Source of the DNA: an uncultured virus (IMG/VR IMGVR_UViG_3300024270_002235)
Taxonomy: Duplodnaviria; Heunggongvirae; Uroviricota; Caudoviricetes
Virus record (IMG/VR): IMGVR_UViG_3300024270_002235
Direction: 5' to 3' (one strand)
DNA: 64,000 nucleotides
Position numbers and translations under genes: made by a program. The notes beneath the pieces are model-generated. The model was not told the DNA's origin, searched no databases, and was given only the letters and a program-made list of their open reading frames with translations. Positions 1 through 41,939 of the stretch are shown here, one piece after another; positions within the stretch are counted from its first letter, which is position 1, and each line of letters opens with the position of its first letter.

Positions 1-1
1 A

Positions 2-133
2 TATAAAAAAATCCTTGGTCAATATAAAAAAGGAGAAGTTGTTACAGTTAAATATTGTCTTAACAATTGGTTTGGTGTTATATATAAAGGAAAACAAGCA
101 TTTATTTGTGGTGATTATATAAAATTAAAATAA
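2..133 (+). CDS. 3' end of a cell-wall hydrolase/endolysin (C-terminal SH3b-like domain), partial
   Basis: Frame 2 reads YKKILGQYKKGEVVTVKYCLNNWFGVIYKGKQAFICGDYIKLK*, matching the bacterial SH3 pattern (ILG..KG..V.V....NW..I.Y.GK..FI..DY). Confidence 0.7.
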   Translation, partial: YKKILGQYKKGEVVTVKYCLNNWFGVIYKGKQAFICGDYIKLK

Positions 134-136
134 TAT

Positions 137-148
137 AACAATATGGTA
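137..148 (+). promoter_or_regulatory. late-type promoter AACA-N6-TA
   Basis: AACA atatgg TA; not followed by a plus-strand ORF before the next terminator. Confidence 0.55.
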
Positions 149-268
149 AGTTGTTATTGTTGTTTAACATATATATCATCTCTCCTCGAATTGACGAGGA
201 CGGACAATACCATGGTTTGATTGGAGTATACTTCGTTTAAGTACGGGGTATACTCCAATCTTTATATT
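148..268 (+). ncRNA. candidate antisense sRNA (anti-RBS tract + hairpin + terminator)
   Basis: Promoter motif, then ...aacatatatatcatctctcct (reverse complement of SD+ATG), hairpin tcctcg/cgagga (183-200) and terminator stem. Confidence 0.5.
219..268 (+). terminator. intrinsic terminator
   Basis: 18-bp stem gattggagtatacttcgt/acggggtatactccaatc (2 G-U) followed by a T-rich tail. Confidence 0.75.
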
Positions 269-278
269 TATTAGGAGA

Positions 279-290
279 AACAATTTTGTA
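279..290 (+). promoter_or_regulatory. late-type promoter AACA-N6-TA
   Basis: AACA attttg TA upstream of the giant structural gene. Confidence 0.65.
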
Positions 291-333
291 ATGAATAAAT
301 ATAATTTATTTTTAGAAGGAGTTGAAAATAAAA

Positions 334-2940
334 ATGGCTGAAGAAAATAACAGAAAAAATAAACTTATTTCTGATAAACAGAATACATATTTTACAGAAA
401 ATAGAATTATGAAGGGTTCAGCTATTCCAACTGAGGGTACATATTTAACTGGTGATATGATTATTAATACGAATCCAGTTACATCTATAGACGAACCTAT
501 GTGGATTTGTAATCAAGGTGGTACACCTGGTGTATGGGGACCAGTAAGTAATACATCTACAACAATAGTTCCTAATTTTGCTAATATGAAAATAAGCAAA
601 GCTACTGTAGGTGGATTATTCTACGTAATAGCTGACGAATCCGATGCTGACGATGGTGGAGCTAAACCAGGATTTTATATAATAACTTCCGTTAAAGAAA
701 ATGAAAATGGTGTAAAAGTTCCAGCAACTTGGGATAAAATAAATAAAAAAGAAAATACAATACCTAAGTTATCATACGATCCTAGTATGCCTGAAGGTAC
801 TAAGATGTATTTAAATGATGATCAAGAATTGATTATAAAATTTAACTTCACAGCTAATACATTCGGTGATGGTAAATATCGTGTATATATCAATGGGTCA
901 TTAGCTAAATCATGGAGTGGTGCTAAAGGTAACGTTATAGTTAATTTAGGAAAAATAACATCAGATGGTACATATGAGATAACTGTTACTGCAACAGACT
1001 ATTTAACAGTTCCTGCTCCAGAAACATTAAGTTATAAAGTTATAGTTGGGGGATTGAAATTAACAAGTACATTTGAACAAACATTATTAACTGCTATATA
1101 TGAAGAAGGGGATATAATAGAATTCCCTTACATGGCTAGTTTAGCAGATGCTAGTCAAAGTATGAAAATGAGAATTAAATTAGTTAATAATGGAACGGGT
1201 GAAACTGTATATGATGATAGTTTTGCTTTAGAAGGGACATTCTTATCTACTATATGGAAATCACCTGTAATAAATAAAGCAGGTTTATATACTATTACAG
1301 CACAAGCATATACTGGAAGTTCAGTATCCGATACAACTGAAGGTACATTTAAATCTCATGAATTATCATATGACATAAGAGTTCTTAAAGCTGGAGAGAT
1401 AGCTATATTAGATGAGTCTAAAGGTATACAATATGATACTAACATGTATATATCAATACCATTTAAAATAGTCAGTAGAATTGCAGACTATTTTGTAATG
1501 AAAGGTCAAATGTATAAAGACGTTAATGGACACTTAGAGTTAGTTGCAGAAACTAGTAATACTGGTATATCTGCAAAAGTTAATGTTACTAACTATTGGT
1601 CAGTTGGTAAATTAGAAGCTGGTACATATAAATATATTATTAAAGGTTATACTGTCGATGGTGGTGTTGAATCAGATCCTGTTGAAGTTATGATGGAAGT
1701 TGTTGAATCACTTTACCAAAAAGTTCCTTTTATCGATAACGCAAACTTAATAGCTTACTTTGACGCTAATACTAAAGGGAACAATGACGGTAGTCCTAAT
1801 ATTTGGGGTAACTCATCTAGACACACAGGTGATAAATACAGAATATTATTACATGGACTAAATTACAGTTCAAATGGATGGAAACATGTAGATGAATCAA
1901 TACCTGATAGTGAAGATGGGGAAATGATGCTTAAATTCACTGGTGAATCATATGGTGAACTTGTTGAAATGGTTAATGGTGAAGCTAAACCTTATAGCCC
2001 ATTCTCAATATTTAAAATGGGTGGACAAAAAGGTATAACAATAGAAACTGCTATACGTACTAGAAATATAGGGGAATTGAATGCACGTGTAATGACATGT
2101 ACAAAATTCAATAATAATATGGAAAACCCATTAAATGAACCAGGAATTAATATAACATATGGTACTATGGCTATAGCGTCAAATGCTCAAGTAAATAGTC
2201 TTGGATTTATGGAAGATGAATGGGTTCATATAACACTTGTAGTAGATAAAGACATAAGAACATTTGAAAAAGTTGGTCAAAATATGATAGAAGACGTTAA
2301 CCCTACATATACACTACGTGTATATATAAATGGTGTTATGTGTTCATGTACTACTATAAATGAAGATGAAAGTAAAGAAAACTTCTTAGACGGTGCTAAA
2401 GAAGCTTATCCTTTAGTACTTAATGCATGTAGAATGATAGATGCTGCAGGAAATGTTTCATTTACTAATTTCGGTGAATGTGAAATAAAATTCATACGTA
2501 TTTACAATAGTTTCTTAAAATCATCAGAAGTTTTACAAAACTATGTATCACATATATACGATTCAGAAGAACAACAACTTGAAAACGATAAGAATAATAC
2601 AGACTTAGCTACATTACCTACTATAGTATTTAAAAGAAAAATAGGTGATGGATATGAAAACAATGCAACATTTGCAACATTACATTCAATCAAGGATAAA
2701 AAACAATCTAAATCAACATTCGTTGATTGTGTAATGGAGTATAACGATGGTGCTGGTAACATAATAGTTTATGATAACATGGATGTATATTTACAAGGTA
2801 CATCATCACTACAATACCCTGTTAAAAACTATAAGATTAAAGCTTGGGTGGATGAAGGAAAAACATCTAAATTAAAATTCGTTCCTCCAGGTATGGAAGA
2901 CGACTGGGTTAAAGATAGTACATATACATTAAAGTGTGAT
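334..2940 (+). CDS. exon 1 of a spliced ~2554-aa virion-type protein (Ig-like/LamG domains, start of CotH-like kinase domain)
   Basis: SD aaggag 316-321 then ATG 334; LamG-like (LIAYFDA...EWVHITLV...VYING...IKFIRIYN); CotH-like QGTSSLQYPVKNYKI...YTLKCD; ends in U at the 5' splice site. Confidence 0.8.
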
Positions 2941-3900
2941 TAAGTATAGTCTCACTATAAAAACCTTTTCTGATATACGGCGAAACTCCTGAGAAGGACA
3001 ACGCCTTGGAAGTTATTTAAACGTTTTAAAATGAAGGTGATAAATATGGATAATAGATTTTACATTTATGCTTATGTAAGATTAGACAAAAATAATTATT
3101 TTTATATAGGTAAAGGTACTGGTAATAGATGTTATGAACATCATACAGGTAGGAATAAACATTTTAAAAACATAATAAATAGTATAGACTATAAAATTGA
3201 AATATTATATGATAATTTAACTGAAAATGAAGCTCTTGAATTAGAAGTTAAGACTATTCATGATTTAGTGTTTAATGAAGGTTATAGTATTGAAATAAAT
3301 GGTTATAACACTAAAAATGAAAATCATCTTGTAAATCAAACATGGGGTGGTGAAGGTGTGAGTGGTTACACACATACCGAAGAAGAACGTAAAAAATGTT
3401 CGTTATTTGGTGAGAAAAACGGTATGTACGGTAAAAAAGGTGAGTTATCACCACATTATGGAAAAACATATACTGAAGAGCATAAAGAAAAAATACGTCT
3501 AGCTAGCCCTAATAGAAATGAAGTTTATTGTGTAGAGTTGAATAGAACTTTTAATTCATATAGAGAAGCTGAAAAAATATTACTAGAAGAATATAATATA
3601 AATTGTTCACATGCATCAATATCTGCAGTTTGTAGAGGAAAACGAAAACATGCGGGTAGAAATATAATAACAGGTGAACTTTTATATCTACATTTTGAAA
3701 ATAAAAACGTTTAAATTACACCAACAACGACTGAGCGAAAAGGCATTTATGATTAATGATGCAACAGTCTGATCTCTAGATATAATCTAACAATGAAACT
3801 AGAGAGGAATGGGCGGTCTGAAATAACGACCTAAAGAAGATCCATTCCCGCCATATTAATATATGGTCAGTAATTTATGAATAATGAAAGTAACAGAATG
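2941..3900 (+). mobile_element. group I intron 1
   Basis: P1 agtgtgat/gtctcact with U2940.G2949 wobble; P3 ccttttc/gaaaagg; P7 gactg/cagtc; terminal G3900; splicing restores K-C-D|Y-M-E in frame. Confidence 0.9.
3046..3714 (+). CDS. intron-encoded GIY-YIG homing endonuclease with NUMOD3-like DNA-binding tail
   Basis: FYIYAY...YFYIGKG...R, conserved E and N-x-x-x-GG, then HTEEE/NGMYGK/HYGKTYTEEHKEKI motifs; SD aaggtga favours ATG 3046. Confidence 0.85.
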   Translation: MDNRFYIYAYVRLDKNNYFYIGKGTGNRCYEHHTGRNKHFKNIINSIDYKIEILYDNLTENEALELEVKTIHDLVFNEGYSIEINGYNTKNENHLVNQTWGGEGVSGYTHTEEERKKCSLFGEKNGMYGKKGELSPHYGKTYTEEHKEKIRLASPNRNEVYCVELNRTFNSYREAEKILLEEYNINCSHASISAVCRGKRKHAGRNIITGELLYLHFENKNV

Positions 3901-4647
3901 TACATGGAACAATCACACAAAAACAATACGCCTACTGCAAGATTCTATAATCAAGTTATAGATGCTTTAGGAGGAATGTCACCTGCTAAGAGAGATGGTT
4001 ATCATGATGCTATAGACGGTTTCCCTTGTATAGTTTACTATAATGAAGGTGGAGTAGATGCTGATGGTAAACCAGCTGAAAATATATTAGTAGGTTCATT
4101 TATGTTTAATATAGATAAAGAGGGTAAAGAATTAGGATTCGAATGTGATTTATATGATGAAATCGGTGATTTAATCGGTAATGGTAAAAATAGTTGTATT
4201 TCATATGAAGCAACTGCCAATGCAAGTGACACAGCTGGATGTTTCTATAAATTATCTGAATCTATAGTAAACGTTTATAATTATTATTTAGAAGACTCTT
4301 ATAAAGAATATTTAGAAAAATATGGTCTTACTTCTGAAAAATGTACTATGGATCAATTTAAAGCAGGAATAAATGATGGAACTATAGAAGAATATATGAC
4401 ATTCGAAGAATTCTCTGCTGACTATAGTGAAACTGATTATATAATGTCAGACTTTGAAGCTAGATATAGTTATTGTGAAGATGACGAAGAAGCTACTTAT
4501 AAACCAATGATTGAATTAGTTAACTGGGTAAGTAACTCAATAGATAATGGTACATTTAAGGACGACTTAGAAAAACATCTTGATTTAACATACATGATAG
4601 CTTATTATCTACAAATGCACGTATTTACACAAGTAGATAACTGTGGT
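3901..4647 (+). CDS. exon 2 of the spliced CotH-like kinase protein
   Basis: YMEQSHKNN...AIDGFP...G.FMFNIDK...FEARY...QVDNCG; in frame with exons 1 and 3. Confidence 0.85.
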
Positions 4648-4734
4648 AAAGTTTATGCCTCAGTATAAAAACTTACTCTGATATACGGCGAAACTCCTGA
4701 GAAGGACAACGCCTTGGAAGATTATAATTGATAA

Positions 4735-4746
4735 AACAATTCTCTA
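4735..4746 (+). promoter_or_regulatory. late-type promoter inside intron 2 ahead of the endonuclease
   Basis: AACA attctc TA, 25 nt before ATG 4772. Confidence 0.5.
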
Positions 4747-4771
4747 TTATTAAACTAATGGAGTGATGTGA

Positions 4772-5473
4772 ATGGAAAAATGTTATTACGTATATCAATA
4801 CATTCGTTTAGATAACGGAAGTATATTTTATATAGGTAAAGGTAAAAATAATAGATATCTTAGATTGGATAGTAGAAATGATCATTTTATGAATATAATA
4901 AATTCTGTTGATTGTGTAGTTGAGATAATATATAATAATTTAACTGAGCGTGAGGCGTTGGAACTAGAAATGCAAACTATACATGATTTGGTATTTAATG
5001 AAGGTTATAGTATAGATATTCATGGTTTCAATGATAAAAGTAATGATAATTATTTGACTAATTGCACATGGGGTGGTGAAGGAACTAGTGGATTTTCTAT
5101 GAAACAATCACAAGAAACTATTGAGAAGAGAAGACTAAAGAACATTGGAAAGAAAAGAACTCCTGAACAAAAAGCACGAATGAAAGAAGCTTGTAGAAAT
5201 CGTAAGGAACCTAATAGAAGCAAAGAATCTATAGAAATACAATATTCTAAAAGTAGTTATACACAAGGTACACATGTACGTTGTATTGAACTTGATAGGG
5301 TATTTCCAAGTAAACGAAAAGCTTTAGAGTGTATGAAAGAGGAGTTTGGTATAGAATTTAATAAAAAAACCTTTACAAAGCATCTCAATCATGAATTGAT
5401 AAAAGGTCATGATTGGTATGGAGAAATATTGATAAATGGAGAATTGGTACAATTGCATTGGGAAATGATATGA
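4772..5473 (+). CDS. intron-encoded GIY-YIG homing endonuclease
   Basis: YYVYQY...IFYIGKG...R; N-terminal half closely similar to 3046..3714 (TIHDLVFNEGYSI, TWGGEG). Confidence 0.85.
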   Translation: MEKCYYVYQYIRLDNGSIFYIGKGKNNRYLRLDSRNDHFMNIINSVDCVVEIIYNNLTEREALELEMQTIHDLVFNEGYSIDIHGFNDKSNDNYLTNCTWGGEGTSGFSMKQSQETIEKRRLKNIGKKRTPEQKARMKEACRNRKEPNRSKESIEIQYSKSSYTQGTHVRCIELDRVFPSKRKALECMKEEFGIEFNKKTFTKHLNHELIKGHDWYGEILINGELVQLHWEMI

Positions 5474-5664
5474 TTATAATCACCAACAACGACTGAGCGA
5501 GTAAGGCTTGAACTTTCAAGTATGCAACAGTCTGATCTCTAGATATAATCTAACAATGAAACTAGAGAGGAGAGGTCATCAGTAACCAGACTGATTTAAG
5601 AAGAACCTTTCCCGCCATATTAATATATGGTCAGTAATTTATGAATAATGAAAGTAACAGAATG

Positions 5665-8600
5665 AAAAATAGTATGTGGGATACATGGGATGGAGTTAAA
5701 TTCTACCCTAGACCATACGATATGGATACACAAATGGGATTATCAAATACAGGTACTGAGATAATCCGTGTTGACTCAGAAATAATACCTTCATTATCTC
5801 CAACTTTATTGGATGGGGATAAAAACTTTATAGGATATAGTTATACAGATACTACAACAGATTTAAGATATATGAACTATAATACTAGAACTAGTAAATT
5901 ATGGAATGCATTCGGAACTGAATTTAAAGAAGAAATAAAAAAAGCATATACTACATTAAGAAATGCTAAAGTATATGACGTTGATAATATATTCAAAGCT
6001 ATTTCAGCTGACACTGATGACAAGATAGGAAAAATTTATTTCAATAAAGATGCTGCATCTAAATATTTATCTCAAACAACAGCATCCGACTCTACTTACT
6101 TACAAATGCTTCATGGTAATAGAGCACAAAAATATAAAAAATTCTTAAAAGAGAGATTAATATTCTTAGACACAGTATTTGGATACGAAGAATCAGCAGC
6201 ACAACCTGATACTTTAAATAGTTATATAGGATTACGTTCAGATGCTGCTTACGGACAAGGGGAAGGAACAACTTTACGTTGTTATGTTGGTGTAAGTGTT
6301 TATTCTCCACAGTATGTAACAATAACTATCGGTTCTGGAGCTGACGGTAAAGTTACTGGATATGTTGGACCTGAATCTAGATATAAAGACCCTGATACTG
6401 GAATAGAGTATGAAGGTGCATTATTCTCATTCCCTATAAAAGGTATAAATAAAGAGATGGGTATAACTGGAGCAGGCAATATTAAGCAAATTAATAGATT
6501 ACAAACACTTAACTTAACTGAAGCCAGAATAGAAAAAGCACTTAAATTACTTGAACTAGACGTTTCATATTCAAACCGTATGGAAGGTCTAAAAATAGGT
6601 AACAATAAATACTTAAGACATCTTAACTGTACTAACTCATACAGATTAGGTACAGCAACAGAATCACAAACTCTAGATTTATCGAACTGTGTTAACTTAA
6701 AAACAGTTGATTTATCTTACACTAAATTTACAGGGGTAATGTTCCCAACAGATACAGTTCTTAACTCTATAAACTTAACTAGTAGTAGTATTAAAAACGT
6801 ATCTATAGACGGTGCAGAATTCCTAGATGACATAAAAATAACAAACTGTGAAAATATTAATAAATTTGAACTTAATAGATGTAACAGAATAGCAGTTGTT
6901 GACGTTGCTAACTCAACAATACAAAACTTCATAGTAACTAACTGTGAAAATGTTACAGAAGTAAACTTATCTGGTTGTAAATCAATAGCTGGATTCGACG
7001 TTACTAACAGTTATAATATAGTAACATTAAATATGTCAGGAAATACAAGTCCTGTAATGAATGACCTTAAATTATACTCAATGTATAAATTAAATAAACT
7101 TATAATATCACAAACAGATACTGTTCATACATTAAGATTACCTAAATATTTAAATGAAGAAGAAGCATTCAAAGCTGTAAATGGTGATCCTAATGCTAAA
7201 TTATGGGATAATTTAACTTACTTAGATGCATCGACTTCAAGTATACGAAAAATACAATATGGATCAGCTGATGTCGACGATGTTGTATTAGACATGAGTC
7301 AATTGAAAAAACTTACTACACTTAAACTAAGTAACTGTACTTATTTTACAGAAATAAGAAATATCAATTATACTGGTCCTTTAGCATCATTATTCTATAA
7401 CTGTAGAGGTCTTACTAAGATAACAGGTGTATTAACTAACGGAAATACTAGTATAAATTCTATGTTCCAACAATGTTTCGTTTTATCAGACATAGATGGT
7501 TTATCTTTAAACTTTACTGGTGTAACTAGTGCTAATAGTACATGTGATAGATGTTTCCGTATGAAAACACCTATGCTTAAGAAAATACTATATGCATGTG
7601 GTGAATCATTAACTAGTGCGACAGGTATGTGTCATATGGCAGGTCTTGACGGTTATGAAACTATATTAGGTACTGCAGAAGATACTACTAGAACAATACC
7701 ATCGGATTTATTTGCTATGAATACTAAATTACAAAACGTTTCAGGATTCTTCGATATAACTGGATACACAACAGTTCCTGGAGATTTATTTGACCCATGC
7801 GGTGCAACACTAACTAACTGTAATAATACATTCGGTAGAATGAGAAATTTAACAACAGTAGGAGCAAGTTTATTACATAATAAACCTAATTTAACTACTG
7901 TATCTCAAATGTTTGCATCTGACGGAAGTCTTACTGATTATATAAATGAAAGTCCTGATATATTTATTGGAAGTTATAATATTACTTCAACAAAACAAAT
8001 GTTCAACAATTGTACTAACTTAGCAGTTTCTGAAGAACTTGGATTAGGAGAAATGATGAAACCGTTAACTTATTTAACTGATGCTAGTTTTATGTTCTTT
8101 GGTTGTTCTAATAACCTTAACTGTGAAATACCTGATGGATTCTTATCAACAAATACTAAACTTGTTAAGATAAATGGTATGTTCCAAAACTGTAGTAAAT
8201 TACCAAAATTACCAGCAAGTTTATTTAACAAATTAGGAGGTACTGCTAAATTCCCTAATTTAACAAAAGCTGTAGGTGTGTTTGGTAACTGTACATCAAT
8301 GGAAGGTATTGTTGAGTCAACTTTCTTCTTAGGAGCTGAAAACTTACTAAATATAGGTATGGACCATGAGGATAATACTTATATGGGAACTACTAGATAT
8401 ACATCTAGAGGTATATTTGAAGGAACTCAAATAACTGGTTATCATGAAACATTCTTAAACGTTGTTCCTAAAGTGCAAAATGTTTCAGGAATGTTTAGAA
8501 ACTGTACTTCTCTTAAAGATTGTCATTACTATAAAGGTTCACAAGTTGAAACTCGTAATAATGGTATAAGTGAAGACTTATTTATAGAAAATAAACTTTT

Positions 8601-9975
8601 ATCTGATACATATTACATGTTCGCTGGATGTAGTAGTATTGAAGGACATATTCCTAGAAATTTACTTGTAAATTCTAAATCGTTACTAAAGAACGTTTCA
8701 TATATGTTCCTTAACTGTTCATTATTAACAGGTGTAAATTTAGATGCTACTAGCGATAATGATGTGCAAACTGGTATATGTGCAGAATGGTTTAAAAATG
8801 GTATAGCGTTAACTAACGTGGCAGGATTTATGCAAGGTTGTAGTTTATACACAGGACAAATACCTGATGATATGTTAGAAGGCTGTGCTAGTTTACAAAG
8901 AACTGATAATCTATTTAACGGTTGTAAAAATATTGTAGGATCTATTCCTCTAGGATTATTTGATGCGTGTAGAAAAACTATCACTACTACAGCAAGTATG
9001 TTTGCAAGTTGTGAAGGATTAGATCAACCTATACCTGTTGGACAATATAACGAAGTTGAAGGTATAGTAGAATACGAACTTGTAGCTAAAGGAACTGAAG
9101 GAGCTATGCAAGTTGTTGAAGTAATGGAAGACCCATTCACACAAGTTGCTTATTCAGACGTTGTTACATTATCACCAAACTTAGCAACTATAATCAACGC
9201 AAGTGGTAATTATTACGTATTACCTAAGGTAGGACCAAAAACTGAAGTTGTCGTTCCAGGATTACTTGCAAACTGTATCCAATTAACTTCAATAGCAAGT
9301 ATGTTCTATGCATGTAAGAAAATAACTGGTGGTATACCACACGATTTATTATTTACAGAAAATAACAATATTAAATATACTAAATTACAAGATGTTTCAA
9401 GATTATTCTATGACTGTGAAAAAATTTCTGAACTTTATCATGAAACTGAGACTGGTATAGATTATATATGTAGTCCAATGTTATTTGATAAGTGTCCAGA
9501 ACTTGTTAACTGTTCATCAATATTCCGTGCAATGCCTGGTATACCAAGTACTGCGAATATACATCCACAAATGTTTAGTAAACAAAATAAAGTTACAAAT
9601 ATTTCTTGTTTATTCAGATGTACAAATGTTACTGGAGCAGTTTCTCCATTATTATTTGCTAACTCAATAAATACTATAACAAGTGCAGCTCAAATGTTTG
9701 CATTCTCAAAAGTTAGTAGTATAGGACCTAACTTCTTAAATGGTGGAGGTAGAAATACTAAGCTTAAAAATATTTATGGTATGTTCTACGGTTGTTCATC
9801 TCTTGAAGGTACTGCACCTGAATTCTGGAATGGTGCTAAATTCACCGCTATGGGTGGAGCAGACTCTAACGGATTCGCAGGAGCACTTAGAGGTTGTACT
9901 AAATTAACAAACTACGCTACTGCACAGGCAGCAAATACTGCATGGACTGCAGACCAACCAATATATGGAGAATAA
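5665..9975 (+). CDS. exon 3: end of CotH-like kinase domain + LRR + BspA-like repeats
   Basis: KNSMW...FYPRPYDMDT (CotH metal-binding motif), then LxxLDLS-type LRRs and MF..C..L repeats. Confidence 0.85.
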   Translation, partial: KNSMWDTWDGVKFYPRPYDMDTQMGLSNTGTEIIRVDSEIIPSLSPTLLDGDKNFIGYSYTDTTTDLRYMNYNTRTSKLWNAFGTEFKEEIKKAYTTLRNAKVYDVDNIFKAISADTDDKIGKIYFNKDAASKYLSQTTASDSTYLQMLHGNRAQKYKKFLKERLIFLDTVFGYEESAAQPDTLNSYIGLRSDAAYGQGEGTTLRCYVGVSVYSPQYVTITIGSGADGKVTGYVGPESRYKDPDTGIEYEGALFSFPIKGINKEMGITGAGNIKQINRLQTLNLTEARIEKALKLLELDVSYSNRMEGLKIGNNKYLRHLNCTNSYRLGTATESQTLDLSNCVNLKTVDLSYTKFTGVMFPTDTVLNSINLTSSSIKNVSIDGAEFLDDIKITNCENINKFELNRCNRIAVVDVANSTIQNFIVTNCENVTEVNLSGCKSIAGFDVTNSYNIVTLNMSGNTSPVMNDLKLYSMYKLNKLIISQTDTVHTLRLPKYLNEEEAFKAVNGDPNAKLWDNLTYLDASTSSIRKIQYGSADVDDVVLDMSQLKKLTTLKLSNCTYFTEIRNINYTGPLASLFYNCRGLTKITGVLTNGNTSINSMFQQCFVLSDIDGLSLNFTGVTSANSTCDRCFRMKTPMLKKILYACGESLTSATGMCHMAGLDGYETILGTAEDTTRTIPSDLFAMNTKLQNVSGFFDITGYTTVPGDLFDPCGATLTNCNNTFGRMRNLTTVGASLLHNKPNLTTVSQMFASDGSLTDYINESPDIFIGSYNITSTKQMFNNCTNLAVSEELGLGEMMKPLTYLTDASFMFFGCSNNLNCEIPDGFLSTNTKLVKINGMFQNCSKLPKLPASLFNKLGGTAKFPNLTKAVGVFGNCTSMEGIVESTFFLGAENLLNIGMDHEDNTYMGTTRYTSRGIFEGTQITGYHETFLNVVPKVQNVSGMFRNCTSLKDCHYYKGSQVETRNNGISEDLFIENKLLSDTYYMFAGCSSIEGHIPRNLLVNSKSLLKNVSYMFLNCSLLTGVNLDATSDNDVQTGICAEWFKNGIALTNVAGFMQGCSLYTGQIPDDMLEGCASLQRTDNLFNGCKNIVGSIPLGLFDACRKTITTTASMFASCEGLDQPIPVGQYNEVEGIVEYELVAKGTEGAMQVVEVMEDPFTQVAYSDVVTLSPNLATIINASGNYYVLPKVGPKTEVVVPGLLANCIQLTSIASMFYACKKITGGIPHDLLFTENNNIKYTKLQDVSRLFYDCEKISELYHETETGIDYICSPMLFDKCPELVNCSSIFRAMPGIPSTANIHPQMFSKQNKVTNISCLFRCTNVTGAVSPLLFANSINTITSAAQMFAFSKVSSIGPNFLNGGGRNTKLKNIYGMFYGCSSLEGTAPEFWNGAKFTAMGGADSNGFAGALRGCTKLTNYATAQAANTAWTADQPIYGE

Positions 9976-9983
9976 TATTTTTT

Positions 9984-10018
9984 AAAATACATAGAGGACT
10001 TTTTCCTCTATGTATTTT
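9984..10018 (+). terminator. intrinsic terminator
   Basis: aaaatacatagagga/tcctctatgtatttt inverted repeat. Confidence 0.75.
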
Positions 10019-10024
10019 ATCTTT

Positions 10025-10064
10025 GTAAAACATGAGAATTTCAATTATATATTATATCGTCGAA
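10025..10064 (+). promoter_or_regulatory. early-type promoter
   Basis: GTAAAA 10025, TCAATTATATATTAT 10041-10055, CGAA 10061. Confidence 0.75.
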
Positions 10065-10096
10065 TACAAGTAGTTAATTTAGAGGAGGTAATAAAT

Positions 10097-10330
10097 ATGA
10101 AAAAATCAACTTTATATTTAATAGCTGATATAGTGAATTCAGTAGAATCTTCTAATCAAAAATTATATGAATTATTAGATACAATGAATCTTTCACCAGA
10201 TGAAAGAGATAAAGTTTTAGAAAGTATATATGTCATAGTAGAAAAAATAGAACAGATAAAAAGATCTAATGTAAGTCAATTAGATAATCATATAGATGTA
10301 GATCAAATAGAAAAAATAAGTAGATTCTAA
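10097..10330 (+). CDS. hypothetical early protein (77 aa)
   Basis: SD gaggagg before ATG 10097; the track start at 10010 lies upstream of the promoter. Confidence 0.7.
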   Translation: MKKSTLYLIADIVNSVESSNQKLYELLDTMNLSPDERDKVLESIYVIVEKIEQIKRSNVSQLDNHIDVDQIEKISRF

Positions 10331-10343
10331 GGAGGGGTAAAAT

Positions 10344-10856
10344 ATGGAGCAAGAATATTGTATAATATATGGTTATAATGATACAGACCCAGGTCCTTTT
10401 ATAGTAGGGGTTACAAAAGATCAGGATATGATAAATGGATTTAGAGAAGAACATTATCATTTCTGTAAAGGCGGTAATGTTGTTATAGATAGTTTCTATG
10501 ATAACTTATCAGCAGATTACGAGATAAAATATTCTGGAGGACATTATCTAACTCCAAAAATGATTACAGATTTTATGCAATATCTAACAGCAGAATATAA
10601 TCAACTAACAATGCTTATAGATACATTATCAAGAGATGTTGAATATTTTAAATTTAATGAAACTGAACAAGATATAATATCAGAAGGTTTAGGATTCTTA
10701 CATGAAACCTTATATGAAACATCATATGGAATGCATATGGAAAATAAATATGGTAGTGATGATATTTTAGATTCTATATATGCATCAGTTTTAGATGTTC
10801 CTGAGTGTTTAAATAGATTCCTATCAACTTACCAGCCTGAAGCTGGGTTATTTTAA
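10344..10856 (+). CDS. hypothetical early protein
   Basis: SD aaggaggg, 170-aa ORF. Confidence 0.75.
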   Translation: MEQEYCIIYGYNDTDPGPFIVGVTKDQDMINGFREEHYHFCKGGNVVIDSFYDNLSADYEIKYSGGHYLTPKMITDFMQYLTAEYNQLTMLIDTLSRDVEYFKFNETEQDIISEGLGFLHETLYETSYGMHMENKYGSDDILDSIYASVLDVPECLNRFLSTYQPEAGLF

Positions 10857-10887
10857 AGATATAACCTTCGGGTTATATCTTTTTTTC
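10855..10887 (+). terminator. intrinsic terminator (UUCG loop)
   Basis: aaagatataacc-ttcg-ggttatatcttt + T run. Confidence 0.85.
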
Positions 10888-10892
10888 TTACC

Positions 10893-10904
10893 TACAATTT
10901 TATA
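10893..10904 (+). promoter_or_regulatory. late-type promoter (TACA variant)
   Basis: TACA atttta TA. Confidence 0.5.
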
Positions 10905-10920
10905 AAAGGAGAGTGATAAG

Positions 10921-11613
10921 ATGAGATTAGTTCCAAAACAAATAGAAAGTTATAAAAACGATAGACTTATAGAGGAAGTCAATATTAACAACGTTCCAGA
11001 TGTTGAGATGATTTACAATATAGTATCTGAAAAGGATAAAGTAAAAACAGTTAAAACATGTGAGAGAATGATACGTTCTAGCTTAGAATATAAAGAGTAT
11101 ATTAAATATCTAAAAGAATACATAGATATGACTAAATGTAGTTTCTTTGGAAATTCTAAAATGGACCATTATTCTAAATTTAAAGTTGAGATACACCATT
11201 CACCATTTACTTTATATGATATTACAATGACTGTATTACTTAAACATCTTGATTATTATGGAGAAATAAATCTATTTGAAGTATGTGAAGAGGTTATGAA
11301 ACTACATTATCAATGTAGAGTAGGATTAATACCGTTATCTACTACAGTACATAAGTTAGTACATGAAGGTATGCTATTTATACCTGTACAAAATGTACGT
11401 GGAGATTGGTTAACATTCTATAAAGAGTATGAACCTTATATGCCTCAAGATATGAAAGATAAATTAAAATCTATCGTTAAATTCTCTAAAGAATGTCAAG
11501 ACTATTCGTTATTAGAAACTAAGTTTACATATGTAGATGTAGATGGATTTAGACCTTTATCTCTATTAGGTCAAGAAGAATTCATGAAGAGAATCGTTTC
11601 AGATCCAAAATAA
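10921..11613 (+). CDS. HNH-like (beta-beta-alpha-metal) protein
   Basis: C...EIHHSPFTLYDI...VGLIPLSTTVHKLVH; paralog of 22249..22923. Confidence 0.55.
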   Translation: MRLVPKQIESYKNDRLIEEVNINNVPDVEMIYNIVSEKDKVKTVKTCERMIRSSLEYKEYIKYLKEYIDMTKCSFFGNSKMDHYSKFKVEIHHSPFTLYDITMTVLLKHLDYYGEINLFEVCEEVMKLHYQCRVGLIPLSTTVHKLVHEGMLFIPVQNVRGDWLTFYKEYEPYMPQDMKDKLKSIVKFSKECQDYSLLETKFTYVDVDGFRPLSLLGQEEFMKRIVSDPK

Positions 11614-11623
11614 TTCATTATTA

Positions 11624-11635
11624 AACAAATAGTTA
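11624..11635 (+). promoter_or_regulatory. late-type promoter
   Basis: AACA aatagt TA. Confidence 0.6.
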
Positions 11636-11658
11636 AAACACGAAAGGAGCGTAGAAAA

Positions 11659-11991
11659 ATGGAAGAAGAAGTAAGATACTATCCGTATAGTATGATAGGA
11701 GAATTAGTGAATGCTGATAAGGGTCGTATTACTTATATGTTAAAAGCAATGCAGATATTGGCAGTCGAAGAAAATCCTAATACTACTTGTAAAATGGGTA
11801 AATTATGTGTACATATAGATTTCAAACGTGAACACTTTAATGATTTATATCCAAAGTATTTCAGAGAATATTTTGATTACAAGAACGGGAGACAATATTT
11901 CGTATTTGAGATAACTGATGAATTTGTTGAGTTTGTTAAAGATAGAATAGAGAAAGTGGGGTGCTTATATAATGTACAATTCAAACAATAA
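11659..11991 (+). CDS. hypothetical protein
   Basis: SD aaaggag, 110-aa ORF. Confidence 0.7.
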   Translation: MEEEVRYYPYSMIGELVNADKGRITYMLKAMQILAVEENPNTTCKMGKLCVHIDFKREHFNDLYPKYFREYFDYKNGRQYFVFEITDEFVEFVKDRIEKVGCLYNVQFKQ

Positions 11992-12469
11992 ATACTGTAC
12001 ACTAGAGACTCTACTAAATGAATTATATTGTTTATTTGAAGTAAATTCACCTGTATTTACTGATGAGCTAGGTTATAAATGGTATGAATTAAGAAATGTA
12101 CTTGATATATTAAGAATAAATGAAGATGAATATATAAACGGTTATTATTTAATGACTATTGAGGATGAGACGTTCATATCAGAAGAGGGTATAAATATGT
12201 TATTAATAGAATATGAAAATGAATTTCGAGATGAAATTCTAAATTATATAACAGGAGATGTTATGCCAGATATAAAATCAGATTCGATGTATTTGGGGTT
12301 GCAAATATTAAATGACATGAGAACTGCCTCAATAGAACATTCTTGTTATTGTGAAGATAGTGATGTATTAATGACATCTGTTAAAGTACAAAAATATACT
12401 GACAATAAAATGAAAAGAATGAATAAAAAACATAAAATGAAAAATAGTAAAAATAATTTTAGAAAATAA
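11972..12469 (+). CDS. Bro-N-like DNA-binding protein
   Basis: WYELRNVLDIL...FISEEGINMLL...YITGDVMPDI resembles Bro-N (WF..DV...L / ISE.GLY.L / W...VLP.I). Confidence 0.55.
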   Translation: MYNSNNKYCTLETLLNELYCLFEVNSPVFTDELGYKWYELRNVLDILRINEDEYINGYYLMTIEDETFISEEGINMLLIEYENEFRDEILNYITGDVMPDIKSDSMYLGLQILNDMRTASIEHSCYCEDSDVLMTSVKVQKYTDNKMKRMNKKHKMKNSKNNFRK

Positions 12470-12484
12470 AATTTCATATAGTAT

Positions 12485-12496
12485 AACAACTAATTA
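12485..12496 (+). promoter_or_regulatory. late-type promoter of the ncRNA
   Basis: AACA actaat TA immediately before a GC-richer structured tract. Confidence 0.6.
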
Positions 12497-12819
12497 GGGA
12501 GATGGAAGGGACAGAGAAGCGTGCCAGTTCAGTGTCTGCAACACTGTTCGAAAGCCTTAGGTAGCCACAGGTACAGATGATTTCCACCACAAGGGAGCCA
12601 GATAATTCAATCCATCAACTAGTTATGTTATACAGCTGATAACATAATGCATCGTATGCTTTTGCAGAGATTAGCGATGTTGTCGATCGTGTGTAGAGTT
12701 GGTGTAGAAAAAGCCAACGTTTTTATATCAATGTGGATAAGATATATACGCATGTGAGACTAAACAAAAGATAAATAGATGTATATAGTGAAGTCATATC
12801 ACTATATACATCTATTTTT
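12496..12819 (+). ncRNA. structured non-coding RNA of unknown family
   Basis: Own promoter and terminator, no credible ORF, raised GC, multiple nested stems (see findings). Confidence 0.65.
12773..12819 (+). terminator. intrinsic terminator
   Basis: 19-bp perfect stem aaatagatgtatatagtga/tcactatatacatctattt. Confidence 0.8.
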
Positions 12820-12934
12820 CCGTACTTGAAAACTAAATAAAAAATATATTTTATCAAATTTTATTGGAGGTAAAATTCTAATGATCTCAGAGAGATCTTA
12901 GCGTAGTCCTATGACTACTTATAGTAATGTTTGT

Positions 12935-12974
12935 GTAAAAAGGTATCAAATCAATTATATATTATGTAAATGAA
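12935..12974 (+). promoter_or_regulatory. early-type promoter
   Basis: GTAAAA 12935, TCAATTATATATTAT 12951-12965, TGAA 12971. Confidence 0.75.
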
Positions 12975-12998
12975 TAATAAATTTTAGGAGGTATTTAT

Positions 12999-13565
12999 AT
13001 GGGAAAAATTATAATAACTACAGATGGAAGTTCTATAAGTGCTAATAATGAAAAAGGATTTGATGCAGCTTCAGCATTTGCTATTTATTATAATAACAAA
13101 TTAATTCATAAAGAATCTAAACTTTTATTAAACCATACAAATAATTATGCTGAAATGTATGCAATTTACAAAGGTACGAAATATTTAGTAGAAAATTCTA
13201 CAGAAATATTTGATGCTGAATCAGTTATGATAGTAACAGATTCTCAGTTATGTGAGAAAACTTTAAATGAATGGATGAAAGGTTGGTTAAAGAAAACTGA
13301 CAATGAAGTATTAATGAGTACAACAGGTAAAGTAAAAAATCAAGAACTGATCAAATCTGCATATATAAATATCTTATTATTAAGTCTTACAATTCCAGTC
13401 TATGTTTGTCATATAAATTCCCATAATAATGAAAGTAAGATTCCTGAAATGCATAAGAAATTTGTCAATAAATATTTTGACATTGATATAGAAGAATTTA
13501 AATTAATATTCGAAGGAAATCAAATAGTAGATAAACTTGCTTATGATACATTAAATGAAAAATAA
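12999..13565 (+). CDS. rnhA: ribonuclease HI
   Basis: ITTDGS, TNNYAEMYA, IVTDS, HINSH, GNQIVDKLA catalytic motifs. Confidence 0.9.
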   Translation: MGKIIITTDGSSISANNEKGFDAASAFAIYYNNKLIHKESKLLLNHTNNYAEMYAIYKGTKYLVENSTEIFDAESVMIVTDSQLCEKTLNEWMKGWLKKTDNEVLMSTTGKVKNQELIKSAYINILLLSLTIPVYVCHINSHNNESKIPEMHKKFVNKYFDIDIEEFKLIFEGNQIVDKLAYDTLNEK

Positions 13566-13575
13566 TATTTTATGT

Positions 13576-13587
13576 AACAACAAAATA
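13576..13587 (+). promoter_or_regulatory. late-type promoter
   Basis: AACA acaaaa TA. Confidence 0.55.
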
Positions 13588-13624
13588 TGTTGAAATTTAA
13601 ATAAAAAATGGAGGTAATGATTTT

Positions 13625-14833
13625 ATGAATAGATTAGATATACATGAATATTATATGAATATTGCAGTTCAAACTTCTTTAAGAAGTACATGTATCAGAA
13701 GAAAAGTTGGTGCAATTATAGTGAAAGATAATAGAATATTATCTACAGGATATAATGGTGCTCCTAGTGGTCTTCCAAATTGTTGTGATGATTGTAAGAG
13801 ATGTTATAGAAGTGCACATAACATACCTTCAGGACAAATGTTGGATATGTGCTATGCTGTACACGCTGAACAGAATGCAATTTTAAACGCAATGAAAACG
13901 GGAGAAGATTTAAGAGGAGCTAGTTTATATGTTAATACGTATCCTTGTGCAACTTGTATGAAACTTACATTACAAGTAGGTATTAGAAATATATATTTCA
14001 TAGACGAATATGAAAATGAATTTACAAAAAATATGGCAAAAGAAGCAGGATGTCAATTAGTTAAAATGGACGGAAGTATTTATCAAACTCCTGTAGGAAC
14101 AGAAGTTAAAACAACTAATGATTTAGATGCTATAGATCCTTTAGTTGCAGCTATATATAAATATAAACCAGGAACTGCAGAGTTTGTAGAAAACAGACAT
14201 AAGATATTTGAAGAAAAAGGTTTATATGAATATTATGATGAGATAATATATTATACAGATTATAGACCTGAAAATGAAGTAACTAAAATAGATAAAGAAG
14301 TATTGAAAAAGGTAGGGACACAATTTGCTAATAGAAATGAACTTGAATATAATGGAGATTTTGTAAGACAGTTAGTAGTTGGAGCTTTAGTATATGATGT
14401 ATTTACAGATAGTTTCATAGTGTTAAAATGTAAAGGAGAAAGATTAAAAGATAAATTAACATTAGTTCAAGGTCATGTTAGTAAATTAGAAAAAGGAAAT
14501 ACAAAACATAGATTACAAACAATTTTAAATAAAAACATAAAGAAAGAATTAACAGAAGAATTAACAATAGATCTTGAAGATATAATAAGTATAGAACCTT
14601 TATATTTAGTACAATCTAACGATAATAAAATAAGTTCAGAACATTTAGGAGTTATCTATCTAGTTAAAATAGATACAGGAAATATAGAATATGAAATAGA
14701 AAGTGGAGAACCAGAAAAGCATGATGTTGAAATGCTTTCATTATTTAAATTATCTGATTTAAAGGTAATAGATAAAATGGATACATGGCTTAGAAAAGTC
14801 ATAGTACAATTAAAAGACGATAAGAGAATTTAG
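13625..14833 (+). CDS. dCMP deaminase fused to a C-terminal NUDIX-like domain
   Basis: RSTC.RRKVGA, TGYNG, HAEQNA, PCATC; C-terminal GHV...KKELTEEL...HLGVIY. Confidence 0.85.
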   Translation: MNRLDIHEYYMNIAVQTSLRSTCIRRKVGAIIVKDNRILSTGYNGAPSGLPNCCDDCKRCYRSAHNIPSGQMLDMCYAVHAEQNAILNAMKTGEDLRGASLYVNTYPCATCMKLTLQVGIRNIYFIDEYENEFTKNMAKEAGCQLVKMDGSIYQTPVGTEVKTTNDLDAIDPLVAAIYKYKPGTAEFVENRHKIFEEKGLYEYYDEIIYYTDYRPENEVTKIDKEVLKKVGTQFANRNELEYNGDFVRQLVVGALVYDVFTDSFIVLKCKGERLKDKLTLVQGHVSKLEKGNTKHRLQTILNKNIKKELTEELTIDLEDIISIEPLYLVQSNDNKISSEHLGVIYLVKIDTGNIEYEIESGEPEKHDVEMLSLFKLSDLKVIDKMDTWLRKVIVQLKDDKRI

Positions 14834-14891: not shown

Positions 14892-14931
14892 GTAAAAAGG
14901 TACTATTTCAATTATATATTATAGTAATGAA
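14892..14931 (+). promoter_or_regulatory. early-type promoter
   Basis: GTAAAA 14892, TCAATTATATATTAT 14908-14922, TGAA 14928. Confidence 0.75.
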
Positions 14932-14958: not shown

Positions 14959-16893
14959 ATGGCAAATGTTGATAAAAATTCTAATAATTATACAATAGAA
15001 AGAATTAGAAAACCAATGGATAGAAGTAAATTAAATCAATTATATAATGAATTTAAATCTGATGATGATTATCTTAGTTATCATTTAGATGTTATAGAAG
15101 AAATGCATCCAAAATTTAAGATAACATTAGTAAATGATGAAGAAAAGAATCCGATTAAGAATTCTGATCTAAATCAATCATACGGATATATGGAAAAACA
15201 TCATGCAATAGAATTTATAGAAGAATGTATAGATAATAACAGAGTTAGTAGTAAACCAAAAGCAGTTATGCAAACAGGATTTAATAAGAAAGCATTAGAT
15301 AAATATAAAGCATTATTAGAAAGAGAGAAAGAAGAATGTGAATTAGTAAACGAATTTACAAAACCATCTTTTGAAGATATAATGAATAATGTTTATGTTA
15401 ATGCATATAATGGTTCAACATATCATATGAAAGATAATGATATTCCAGATGATTTAAGAGAAGATGTTGGAGTAACAATTCCAGGTTTAATAGAAACTAA
15501 AGAAGATTATTTTGAATTTGTTAAGAGATTAAAAGATAGAGGTAAAAATGGTTTAGGACGTTCTATATATGAACGTTATGAAGATTATGAAGATGCAAAA
15601 GATTTAATTGAAAGATATAAACAAGCATTGTTTGATAAGTATGGTGGTAAAGAAGAATTCTTCCATGCTAAAGATATGGGTGGAATGTTTGGAGCTTATG
15701 AGTATTATCCAACAGTTAAACCTAGATTTAAGAAGACAATGCGTAATATAAAATTAGATAGAGGTATGAACTTAAACGAATTAGCAATGGTAAAAGATAT
15801 GGGTAAACGTATATGGGAAGAATATGAAGAAGAAATAAATGCAATAGAAGTTGATGGATATGATTTCACAATGTATGAAAGCACACCACCTAAATTCAAA
15901 GACCTACCAGAAGACCTACAAATGTTCTATAAAACAGATAAAGATAACATTAATGGTTTCACACATACAGATAGATTCACATCTTATGAGCAATATGCAA
16001 ATTCTCTAATCGCATCTAAAGATCCAGATAAACAACTTGAAGGTTATAGAATATTAGAAGATATTAAGAGTGACATGATGTTAGATCAAGAAGATTATGA
16101 ATCTAGTTTTGTAAATGTTACAGACATAGATGATTTAACAATATCTTCAGTAATAAATCAATTCCAATATGATAAACTTATGGAAGAGTATAAGAATGAT
16201 TCTAGTGTAGTTGATAGTATAATGAAAGACAATAAAGAATCAAGAGAAGCTTATGAGAAATATCTAGAATATCAATTAATAGGTATCAATGGATATGATA
16301 TGGAAAATCCAATAGATAAGACAACAGTTAAAGGTTTAGTTAAATATGCAGCAGATTATGTATTTAATGAAGGATTTAAACGTAGAGAAGATGAAATATT
16401 ATCAATGAACTCAGTAGCTGAAAGTTTATATAAAGATTCTAAACATGTAAGCTTTGGTGAAGCGAGAGATCAAAGAACAGGAATGAGAAAAGGGGATAAT
16501 AAAATATCAGCATATGTAAGAGAAATAGCAGATGCAGCTAAGAAAAGTTTACAAAACATGAACTCAAATGCAGACAATGTTAATAGAGTTGATGGATCTA
16601 CAATAGATATAGGTGATGCAACAGGATATCAATTATTAAATAGAGGTTTAGATGGTTTTGAATTAAATCCAAATGAAGCTAGTCAATTATTAAATTACAT
16701 GAAGAATAATGATAAATTAGCTGAGAAAATTTATGAATTAAGTTCTGATTCTAAAGCAAATGATATGTTCAGTGAAAGAACTAATATAGATGATTTCGTA
16801 AATGAAGCTAAGCAAACAAGTAAACCTATGATCACAAAAGCTATGATAGAGAAAGCTATAGAAAATAATAAAAATGGTAGAAAGGGAGAATGA
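14959..16893 (+). CDS. hypothetical acidic early protein (644 aa)
   Basis: Long ORF, SD gggagg; no recognised motif. Confidence 0.8.
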   Translation: MANVDKNSNNYTIERIRKPMDRSKLNQLYNEFKSDDDYLSYHLDVIEEMHPKFKITLVNDEEKNPIKNSDLNQSYGYMEKHHAIEFIEECIDNNRVSSKPKAVMQTGFNKKALDKYKALLEREKEECELVNEFTKPSFEDIMNNVYVNAYNGSTYHMKDNDIPDDLREDVGVTIPGLIETKEDYFEFVKRLKDRGKNGLGRSIYERYEDYEDAKDLIERYKQALFDKYGGKEEFFHAKDMGGMFGAYEYYPTVKPRFKKTMRNIKLDRGMNLNELAMVKDMGKRIWEEYEEEINAIEVDGYDFTMYESTPPKFKDLPEDLQMFYKTDKDNINGFTHTDRFTSYEQYANSLIASKDPDKQLEGYRILEDIKSDMMLDQEDYESSFVNVTDIDDLTISSVINQFQYDKLMEEYKNDSSVVDSIMKDNKESREAYEKYLEYQLIGINGYDMENPIDKTTVKGLVKYAADYVFNEGFKRREDEILSMNSVAESLYKDSKHVSFGEARDQRTGMRKGDNKISAYVREIADAAKKSLQNMNSNADNVNRVDGSTIDIGDATGYQLLNRGLDGFELNPNEASQLLNYMKNNDKLAEKIYELSSDSKANDMFSERTNIDDFVNEAKQTSKPMITKAMIEKAIENNKNGRKGE

Positions 16894-16898
16894 TATAT

Positions 16899-20696: not shown

Positions 20697-20708
20697 AACA
20701 AAATAATA
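20697..20708 (+). promoter_or_regulatory. late-type promoter
   Basis: AACA aaataa TA. Confidence 0.5.
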
Positions 20709-28537: not shown

Positions 28538-28577
28538 GTAAAAAGGTATAATTTCAATTATATATTATAATAGCGAA
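28538..28577 (+). promoter_or_regulatory. early-type promoter
   Basis: GTAAAA 28538, TCAATTATATATTAT 28554-28568, CGAA 28574. Confidence 0.75.
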
Positions 28578-41927: not shown

Positions 41928-41939
41928 TACTGTATTGTT
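41928..41939 (-). promoter_or_regulatory. late-type promoter
   Basis: AACA atacag TA. Confidence 0.6.

Follow-up and report, generated by a model that had tools for sequence, protein, structure and literature searches.

Does the late promoter motif that lies directly behind an endolysin gene in an uncultured gut phage drive a small RNA, and is such an RNA directed against an early gene? A sequence-only reading of this locus had proposed that a late promoter, a stretch without an open reading frame and a terminator together produce a trans-acting antisense RNA, whose mirror-image ribosome-binding site shuts off an early kinase gene. The locus was studied in the window, i.e., the whole stretch of 64,000 nucleotides of phage DNA that was analysed, and in relatives of the phage.

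Phage and window

Judged from its genes, the phage is an uncultured, distant AR9/PBS1-like jumbo phage. The window has a G+C content of 29% and contains an RNAP beta-like ORF (27294-28505; split polymerase) with 37% identity to its counterparts in the Bacillus phages AR9, PBS1 and vB_BpuM-BpSp. A dCMP deaminase and a 5058-aa ORF are also encoded. No relative of the window at the DNA level was found in the phage collection searched. The source runs of the phage were animal faeces and bovine-gut metagenomes. A relative, G002 (227.5 kb, rated 97% complete), was available for comparison.

Positions 36364-64000 of the window showed 99.6% identity to G002, and the aligned parts of positions 1-36000 showed 74-92%. 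This mosaic relation points to a recent exchange of a structural module. The 5058-aa ORF (47027-62203, minus strand) contains many internal repeats and cross-matched many sites at 98-130 kb of G002.

Organization of the gap between the endolysin and tail-fibre-like genes

The gap (134-333) follows the 3' end of the upstream gene (2-133, plus strand; stop codon TAA at 131-133), which encodes a glucosaminidase-type endolysin with an SH3-like C-terminus. A full-length endolysin homologue of 274 aa, nearly identical across window positions 2-133, was found in the relative L002, and it matched the Pfam family Glucosaminidase (2e-15) and, below the curated cut-off, SH3_3 (3.5e-5). P1, an AR9-type late promoter motif (AACAATATGGTA, 137-148, plus strand; predicted start site A148), begins 3 nt past the endolysin stop codon. 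It is followed by an AU-rich 5' body (149-182, plus strand), which is predicted to be unpaired in the centroid fold, and by hairpin 1 (179-204, plus strand). The short hairpin that had been noticed at 183-200 was found to be the core of this structure, with TCCTCG/CGAGGA arms and a 6-nt loop, and the fold extends this core. The 5' arm of hairpin 1, CUCCUCG, contains anti-SD-like letters, and the hairpin is unique within the window. Positions 155-186 had been described as the reverse complement of a translation start, and this description held, since the reverse complement of the tract (hereafter, the mirror tract) reads AGGAGAGATGATATATATGTTAAACAACAATA. Its mirror ATGs, i.e., CAT triplets, are supplied by a strain-specific filler of 15 nt, TAACATATATATCAT (166-180).

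The unit is closed by an intrinsic terminator (219-270, plus strand; -27.8 kcal/mol). The 18-bp terminator of the sequence-only reading was recovered as an 18-pair stem at 219-260 followed by TTTATATTTA. Three G-U pairs of the terminator exist on the plus strand only, and the minus strand has no U-tract. Other terminators of the window begin a few nucleotides past a stop codon; here, 85 nt are interposed. Beyond the terminator lie a second predicted late promoter, P2 (AACAATTTTGTA, 279-290, plus strand; predicted start site A290), and the gene that it would serve, a tail-fibre-like late gene of PHROG 9915 (334-2943, plus strand) with the RBS GGAG at 318-321.

No convincing plus-strand ORF was found in the unit, as had been stated earlier: plus-strand ORFs of at least 20 aa either had no SD or started upstream of the predicted start site, and none was conserved. 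The order of the stop codon (133), P1 (137-148) and the terminator (219-260), with no conserved ORF between them, corresponds to the layout of 3'-UTR-type sRNAs. Rfam gave no match at the gathering score across the whole window, and at E up to 1 nothing was matched on the locus of the unit in window positions 1-14000, in L002 or in L004. Two metatranscriptome runs were compared over positions 1-1500 as assembled contigs, which resolve neither strand nor transcript starts. The contigs of RNA run X16 covered positions 1-112, 387-724 and 1051-1370, and none spanned 151-386, a contig gap that is uninformative; RNA run X20 gave one contig piece within 1-1500, at 668-883. Small RNAs are usually lost from metatranscriptome-type libraries. 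Given the sequence features, a late RNA of ~120 nt extending from P1 to the terminator is plausible.

Downstream of the gap, the tail-fibre-like gene is seemingly split into three ORFs (334-2943, 3877-4668 and 5641-9975). The inserts in this region carry ORFs 3031-3714 and 4772-5473, the latter of which matched a homing-endonuclease PHROG, and the gaps within 334-9975 are located at 2944-3030, 3715-3876, 4669-4771 and 5474-5640. The flanks of the inserts repeat each other, and the 45 nt around starts 3877 and 5641 are identical. In the relative L003, one ORF of 2522 aa is located where the window has the split tail-fibre-like ORFs. No Rfam intron was matched in the inserts at E up to 1; it is possible that they are introns or other mobile inserts. 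Another contig, L001 (positions 1-1240), is a 1.2-kb contig of low coverage in which the N-terminal 270 aa of the tail-fibre-like protein (97% identity) are encoded downstream of a gene that is quite different and higher in G+C. L001 represents either a module exchange between phages or a chimeric assembly.

The late promoter motif

In AR9, the late consensus AACA-(6N)-TA/G was found at 94 late start sites, and its last base is the start (PMC5312081, Lavysh et al. 2017). The late motif reported at 137-148 was confirmed as AACAATATGGTA and fits this consensus (PMC5312081). For the counts, a slightly extended form of the late motif, AACAA-N5-TA, was used, and window DNA outside ORFs of at least 60 aa was considered intergenic. 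The window contained 31 copies, 16 of which were located in the 5.7% of the DNA that is intergenic. This corresponds to densities of 2.2e-3 per nt and strand in intergenic DNA and 1.2e-4 in coding DNA, i.e., an ~18-fold enrichment. The next gene was co-oriented with the motif for all 16 intergenic copies, and a start codon followed 18-92 nt after 13 of them, the exceptions being P1 and the motifs at 12485 and 20697. The motif at 20697 is followed by a 41-aa ORF. G002 contained 123 AACAA-N5-TA sites, of which 58 were intergenic, and a co-oriented start was located at most 100 nt downstream of 49 of these 58. The homologue of P1 is missing from the 58 sites because the crude ORF caller placed a plus-strand ORF over it. 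Judging from the intergenic enrichment and the placement in front of genes, both in the window and in G002, the motif probably represents a working promoter type in this phage, as the earlier reading had assumed. A scan of the window for sigma-70-type promoters gave 137 matches vs 147.5 in shuffles, i.e., no excess.

The late motif at 12485 is followed by ~500 nt (to 12998) without an ORF of at least 60 aa and with visibly higher G+C, and a promoter is present at the matching place in G002 (165644). The stretch 12485-12998 was not more strongly folded than expected (z -0.16) and matched nothing in Rfam.

The question arises of whether P1 could be a chance copy of the motif. A chance copy in the 85-nt gap between the stop codon and the terminator was expected at 0.011 (coding rate) or 0.027 (Markov rate). 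AACAA-N5-TA was found 15 times in the coding DNA of the window, whereas the Markov model predicts ~35 copies for the whole window when both strands are counted. Because of these motif statistics, P1 is probably a genuine late promoter. A role as a polymerase decoy mimicking the template-strand promoter element was considered for the UUGUU repeats at 151-164; this candidate was dropped, and the repeats are absent from L004.

Conservation of the unit in relatives

Searches with the downstream protein led to three metagenome contigs, and searches with the L002 endolysin led to two IMG/VR records of 227.5 and 202.6 kb. In IMG/VR, neither a relative of the downstream protein nor a copy of the terminator or the hairpin was found, and the genome contigs searched for relatives yielded none. 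A 16-nt P1 pattern was present at 113 loci; among the loci examined, words from the terminator, the hairpin and the endolysin end occurred together only in L039 and L066, the two records that were already known.

The window and its relatives together show three body types. What is retained is P1, hairpin 1 and the terminator, and the intervening body is rich in indels. L002 (70% protein identity) keeps P1, the GUUGUUGUU stretch, hairpin 1, the terminator and P2, and ~68 nt with their own small hairpin and T-run replace the 15-nt TAACATATATATCAT of the window. In L004 and L005, P1, the terminator and P2 are present, as are a related small hairpin and a degraded version of hairpin 1, and the mirror tract is missing; the small gene after P2 in these contigs differs from the downstream gene of the window. 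A bovine-gut contig from run X12 is window-like over positions 1-578, with one change in P1 (G145A), one in the hairpin 1 loop (A190G), small changes 3' of hairpin 1 and an unchanged mirror tract. In L002, L004/L005 and the X12 contig, P1 is retained as AACAATATAGTA in spite of differing flanks. The mirror tract was carried only by the window and one near-identical contig, and run X7 contained the window type together with the L004 type, the latter as a loose end. The independent relative types number three and are closely related, so the conservation of P1 is weak evidence.

P2 was conserved in L002, L003 and L004. In L003 (59% protein identity), the stop codon is followed by the terminator, P2 and the gene, and neither P1 nor an insert is present; the terminator begins 3 nt past the stop. 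Because the terminator of L003 directly follows the stop codon without P1, and because other terminators of the window are also located near stop codons, the unit looks like an insert between the stop codon and the terminator.

The predicted pairs, 27 in number, were compared across three sequences. Two pairs had changed on both sides and were still paired, two had changed on one side and were still paired, and two were broken in L004. Hairpin 1 contributed one compensatory pair (U-A to C-G), a single change from G-U to A-U and a pair that is broken in L004, and the terminator contributed one compensatory pair (C-G to U-A). Since the G-U pairs can pair only on the plus strand, these changes appear to show that the hairpins were selected on that strand. 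The anti-SD-like arm CUCUCCUCG was kept in L002 and partly in L004.

Recurrence of promoter-hairpin units

Units of a similar kind were found elsewhere in G002. At 7354, 79511 and 184941 (all plus strand), a late promoter is followed by a short ORF-less stretch, a hairpin with a T-run, a second late motif and a gene, where ORF-less means that no ORF of at least 60 aa precedes the hairpin with its T-run. At 184891 (minus strand), a late promoter and a short stretch are followed by an early-type block. The units at 79511 and 184891 have similar 5' ends and a CCUCC/GGAGG-type hairpin, and they look like paralogues. In the window, the late motifs at 41939, 47016 and 62303 (minus strand) are followed by a stable terminator-like hairpin and a gene without a second promoter; the 5058-aa ORF is among the genes behind these hairpins. 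Given this arrangement, transcripts from 41939, 47016 and 62303 must read through the hairpin or carry it as a 5' structure.

The recurrence of such units makes it likelier that the short late RNAs are really made. It also shows that a late promoter in front of a terminator is routine in this lineage rather than a device aimed at one gene.

The proposed target gene

The proposed target encodes a probably early protein of 963 aa whose N-terminal domain looks kinase-like; its start region (16884-16913, plus strand) contains the SD GGGAGA at 16884-16889 and the start codon ATG at 16899. Another ATG, at 16890, lies immediately behind the SD, and the TGA that overlaps it ends the upstream gene 14959-16893. 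The usable start is, by its spacing, the ATG at 16899, 9 nt past the SD.

The early promoter consensus of AR9 is AAATATATATTAT-(6N)-G (PMC5312081). In the window, a block GTAAAAAGGTA-N7-TCAATTATATATTAT, which is near this consensus (PMC5312081), is located upstream of the genes at 12999, 14959 and 28592. Its copies (12935-12965, 14892-14922 and 28538-28568) each lie after a terminator and before a gene, and AATTATATATTAT is also found at 10043 and 19818. The early-like motif at 14910-14922 heads the target operon, and there is no terminator between the genes 14959-16893 and 16899. Thus, the assignment of the target to the early class was supported by an AR9-early-like motif in front of its operon, and the gene is probably early. 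With two mismatches allowed, the AR9 early consensus was found 48 times in the window vs 46.5 expected, i.e., without overall enrichment; the early signal is convincing only in the form of the extended block, which is found in front of three or more genes.

The kinase assignment stood in part: the N-terminal 200 aa look kinase-like in the fold search, but no Pfam match was obtained. The target protein also matched no PDB sequence and no phage protein. Among the PDB matches listed by Foldseek for the kinase-like domain, all were protein kinases (E ~4e-4 to 2e-3, TM ~0.3), and an Atlas lead pointed to the Kinase-PolyVal and Phage_T7_kinase families (0.93). The AF2 model of the domain built from 8 sequences had a pLDDT of 62, with the N-lobe alone confident; the model built from 2 sequences (pLDDT 43) was useless. 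Residues K81, E95, D162, N169 and D185-Y-G were invariant across the 8 sequences and would correspond to kinase motifs. The homologue of the target protein in G002 showed 64% identity overall and 80% over the first 210 aa.

Pairing of the RNA with the start of the kinase-like gene

The 12-nt match between 168-179 and 16890-16901 and the further pairing blocks that had been listed were all reproduced. The plus strand carries ATGATATATATG, the complement of 168-179, at 16890, and a gapped alignment of GGAGA-ATGATATATATG-AAAACAAAAATA with the mirror tract recovered every listed block. For duplex prediction, the 39-nt 5' part of the RNA (148-186), which is unpaired in the centroid fold, was taken as the query, and the 44 start regions within the 64-kb window were taken as targets. 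The duplex with 16884-16913 had an energy of -27.2 kcal/mol and was the best of the 44, the next being -21.2 kcal/mol. Among 300 dinucleotide shuffles, 2.3% paired as well as this. The local alignment score was 38 vs 26.3 +/- 2.3 in dinucleotide shuffles, and none of 200 shuffles was as good.

The SD-spacer-ATG layout that is common to start regions is lost on shuffling. When real start regions were used as queries, 14 of the 44 matched elsewhere in the window with a score of at least 38; these 14 include one exact repeat pair, two regions sharing the early promoter block and also the region at 16890. Used in place of the sRNA, mirror images of real starts paired at -27.2 kcal/mol or better with a non-cognate start in 10 of the 44 cases, two of the ten being the repeat pair. 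The kinase RBS had been expected to rank above the shuffled background, and it did, but it did not stand out from the mirror-of-real-start controls. The pairing looks ordinary for an RBS mirror, though it is unusual in comparison with shuffled sequence.

Compensatory changes in relatives, which the antisense proposal would lead one to look for, were not found in the one genome compared. In G002, the homologous start region reads AAAGGATGTGTAATTTATATG, unlike that of the window, and the RNA body differs as well; the local P1 RNA and the start of the kinase-like gene gave -10.1 kcal/mol (rank 158/170), i.e., no pairing. No better target for the window RNA was found in G002, where the best score was 35. 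Arms of the GGAG/CTCC type are common in the hairpins of this phage, terminators included. The mirror layout itself may be accidental because the anti-SD letters are part of a conserved hairpin arm, that of hairpin 1, and the CATs come from the filler alone.

The sequence-only reading had also named an alternative, namely, that the tract is simply the RBS and start of a minus-strand gene for a 22-aa peptide (MLNNNNNLPYCYIILILYNHHK, 114-179). Such a gene is most improbable. The ORF does have a strong SD, AGGAGAG, 9 nt before the ATG; however, no late or early promoter motif is located nearby on the minus strand, and the ORF runs antisense into the endolysin 3' end. It was found in the window type only. 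In L002, the minus-strand start is displaced and has a poor SD, and the frameshifted ORF of 17 aa has a different C-terminus, and L004 has no equivalent minus-strand start with an SD. The G-U pairs of the hairpins, which point to selection on the plus strand, also argue against this ORF.

Explanations of the locus

The reading preferred here, to which we assign about an even chance, is that the locus is an orphan late promoter-terminator unit from which an RNA of ~120 nt is made, that transcription partly continues past the terminator, that the body of the unit changes fast and that its fit to the kinase start is coincidental. The non-virion RNA polymerase would start at A148, at the late promoter 3 nt past the endolysin stop codon, and would transcribe the ORF-less body of ~70 nt. 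It would mostly halt at the endolysin terminator (219-260 plus the U-tract), leaving a late RNA of ~120 nt, i.e., an orphan unit of the '3'-UTR type'. A fraction of the polymerases would probably pass the terminator and contribute to the tail-fibre message made from P2. Between strains, the body would change fast via insertions and deletions, and the 'mirror RBS' would arise where the conserved hairpin arm CUCUCCUCG meets the 15-nt AT-rich filler of the window type. Chance, rather than a conserved regulatory pairing, most likely accounts for the fit to the start of the early kinase-like gene. The lead of 6 kcal/mol that the kinase pairing has over the next start region counts against pure coincidence, and some room is left for a strain-specific function of this pairing. 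We infer from motifs, structures, conservation and statistics that the RNA is initiated and terminated as described, that some read-through occurs and that a trans target is lacking.

A trans-acting role, in which the ~120-nt late RNA would bind the SD and start codon at 16884-16913 and shut off the early kinase-like gene late in infection, is considered very unlikely. This proposal can draw on the 12 contiguous pairs with the SD block and their energy, which is the best of the 44 start regions, on the rarity of equally good shuffles in both the duplex and local-score comparisons and on the predicted single-strandedness of the pairing stretch. The early-type motif of the target operon, the kinase-like fold of the protein and the late antisense RNAs made by AR9, though cis-encoded (PMC5312081), also agree with it. 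On the other hand, 14/44 real starts match elsewhere in the window and 10/44 of their mirror images pair with a non-cognate start at least as well, L002 and L004/L005 lack the tract with the mirror ATGs, the G002 start AAAGGATGTGTAATTTATATG does not pair with the local P1 RNA, and the targets were ranked within the 64-kb window, which is one part of the strain's genome. An sRNA turning off the early kinase is not supported by the comparative data, and the claim was not upheld. A late regulatory sRNA with some other role, such as general SD masking or a strain-specific target outside the window, and belonging to a late orphan RNA family of AR9-like gut phages, is unlikely, although less so. Orphan late units recur in G002, where those at 79511 and 184891 carry CCUCC stretches, and the anti-SD-like arm CUCUCCUCG is retained in L002 and in part in L004. 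However, in the window these anti-SD letters are buried in the stem of hairpin 1, arms of this type are too common in the hairpins of the phage to be specific, and the exposed stretch is not conserved, has no better target in G002 and matches nothing in Rfam.

It is also conceivable, though doubtful, that P1 is silent or of negligible activity and that 134-268 is a long endolysin 3' UTR with a terminator and an indel-rich filler. The 12-nt motif is low in information and has 15 copies inside the coding DNA of the window, the relatives are so close that P1 may have been inherited rather than selected, and L003 manages without P1. Against this, the chance expectation for the gap is 0.01-0.03, the motif is depleted outside promoter positions, and all 15 other intergenic copies in the window (15/15) face a gene or an ORF-less unit.

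DapZ and MicL are 3'-UTR-derived sRNAs that have their own promoter and share the terminator of the mRNA. The unit resembles them in that the promoter is located at or after the end of the upstream gene, the body is short and ORF-less, and the terminator is that of this gene. In contrast, DapZ and MicL are enterobacterial and Hfq-dependent and have conserved seeds and proven targets, whereas the unit of the window is predicted and has no conserved seed. The sRNAs of the RoxS/RsaE type mask SDs in Bacillota, and P22 sar, P1 c4 and DicF are phage antisense RNAs that cover an RBS. The mechanism proposed for the window RNA was of this kind, i.e., an exposed stretch pairs with the SD and the start and blocks the ribosome. 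However, these RNAs expose conserved C-rich or complementary seeds, whereas the window unit has its anti-SD in a stem and exposes a variable AU-rich stretch.

Among phages, the closest parallel is AR9, although the two phages share only ~37% identity in an RNA-polymerase subunit. The late units of AR9 likewise have AACA-(6N)-TA/G with its last base as the start, and its operons end at hairpin terminators (PMC5312081, Lavysh et al. 2017). Some late promoters of AR9 also drive antisense transcripts that are not mRNAs and appear late (PMC5312081). These antisense RNAs are cis-encoded opposite genes (PMC5312081), whereas the unit of the window is intergenic with nothing on the other strand. In the portions of the literature consulted, no description of a trans-acting sRNA in AR9-like phages was found. 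For the jumbo phage phiKZ, a 75-nt sRNA was predicted from transcript architecture, and a northern blot did not confirm it (PMC8244752, Wicke et al. 2020). The phiKZ case is alike in being a jumbo-phage sRNA predicted from architecture and differs in the polymerase and the promoter type (PMC8244752). Most likely, the unit belongs with the AR9-type late units and the 3'-UTR-type small transcripts.

A broader proposal would be that a class of short late RNAs exists in AR9-like gut jumbo phages, transcribed from promoters located between the stop codon and the terminator of a gene, and that their fast-evolving exposed stretches silence the RBSs of early messages in a strain-specific way, here that of the kinase-like gene. 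We regard this class as quite improbable. If it existed, the early-to-late switch would be RNA-based, and every strain would have its own pair of RNA and target. The transcription of AR9-like jumbo phages has been studied in one cultured phage only. If the RNA of the preferred reading is made, it would add a non-coding late unit of the 3'-UTR type to these phages, and the promoter-before-terminator units in the relative genome are worth transcriptomic attention.
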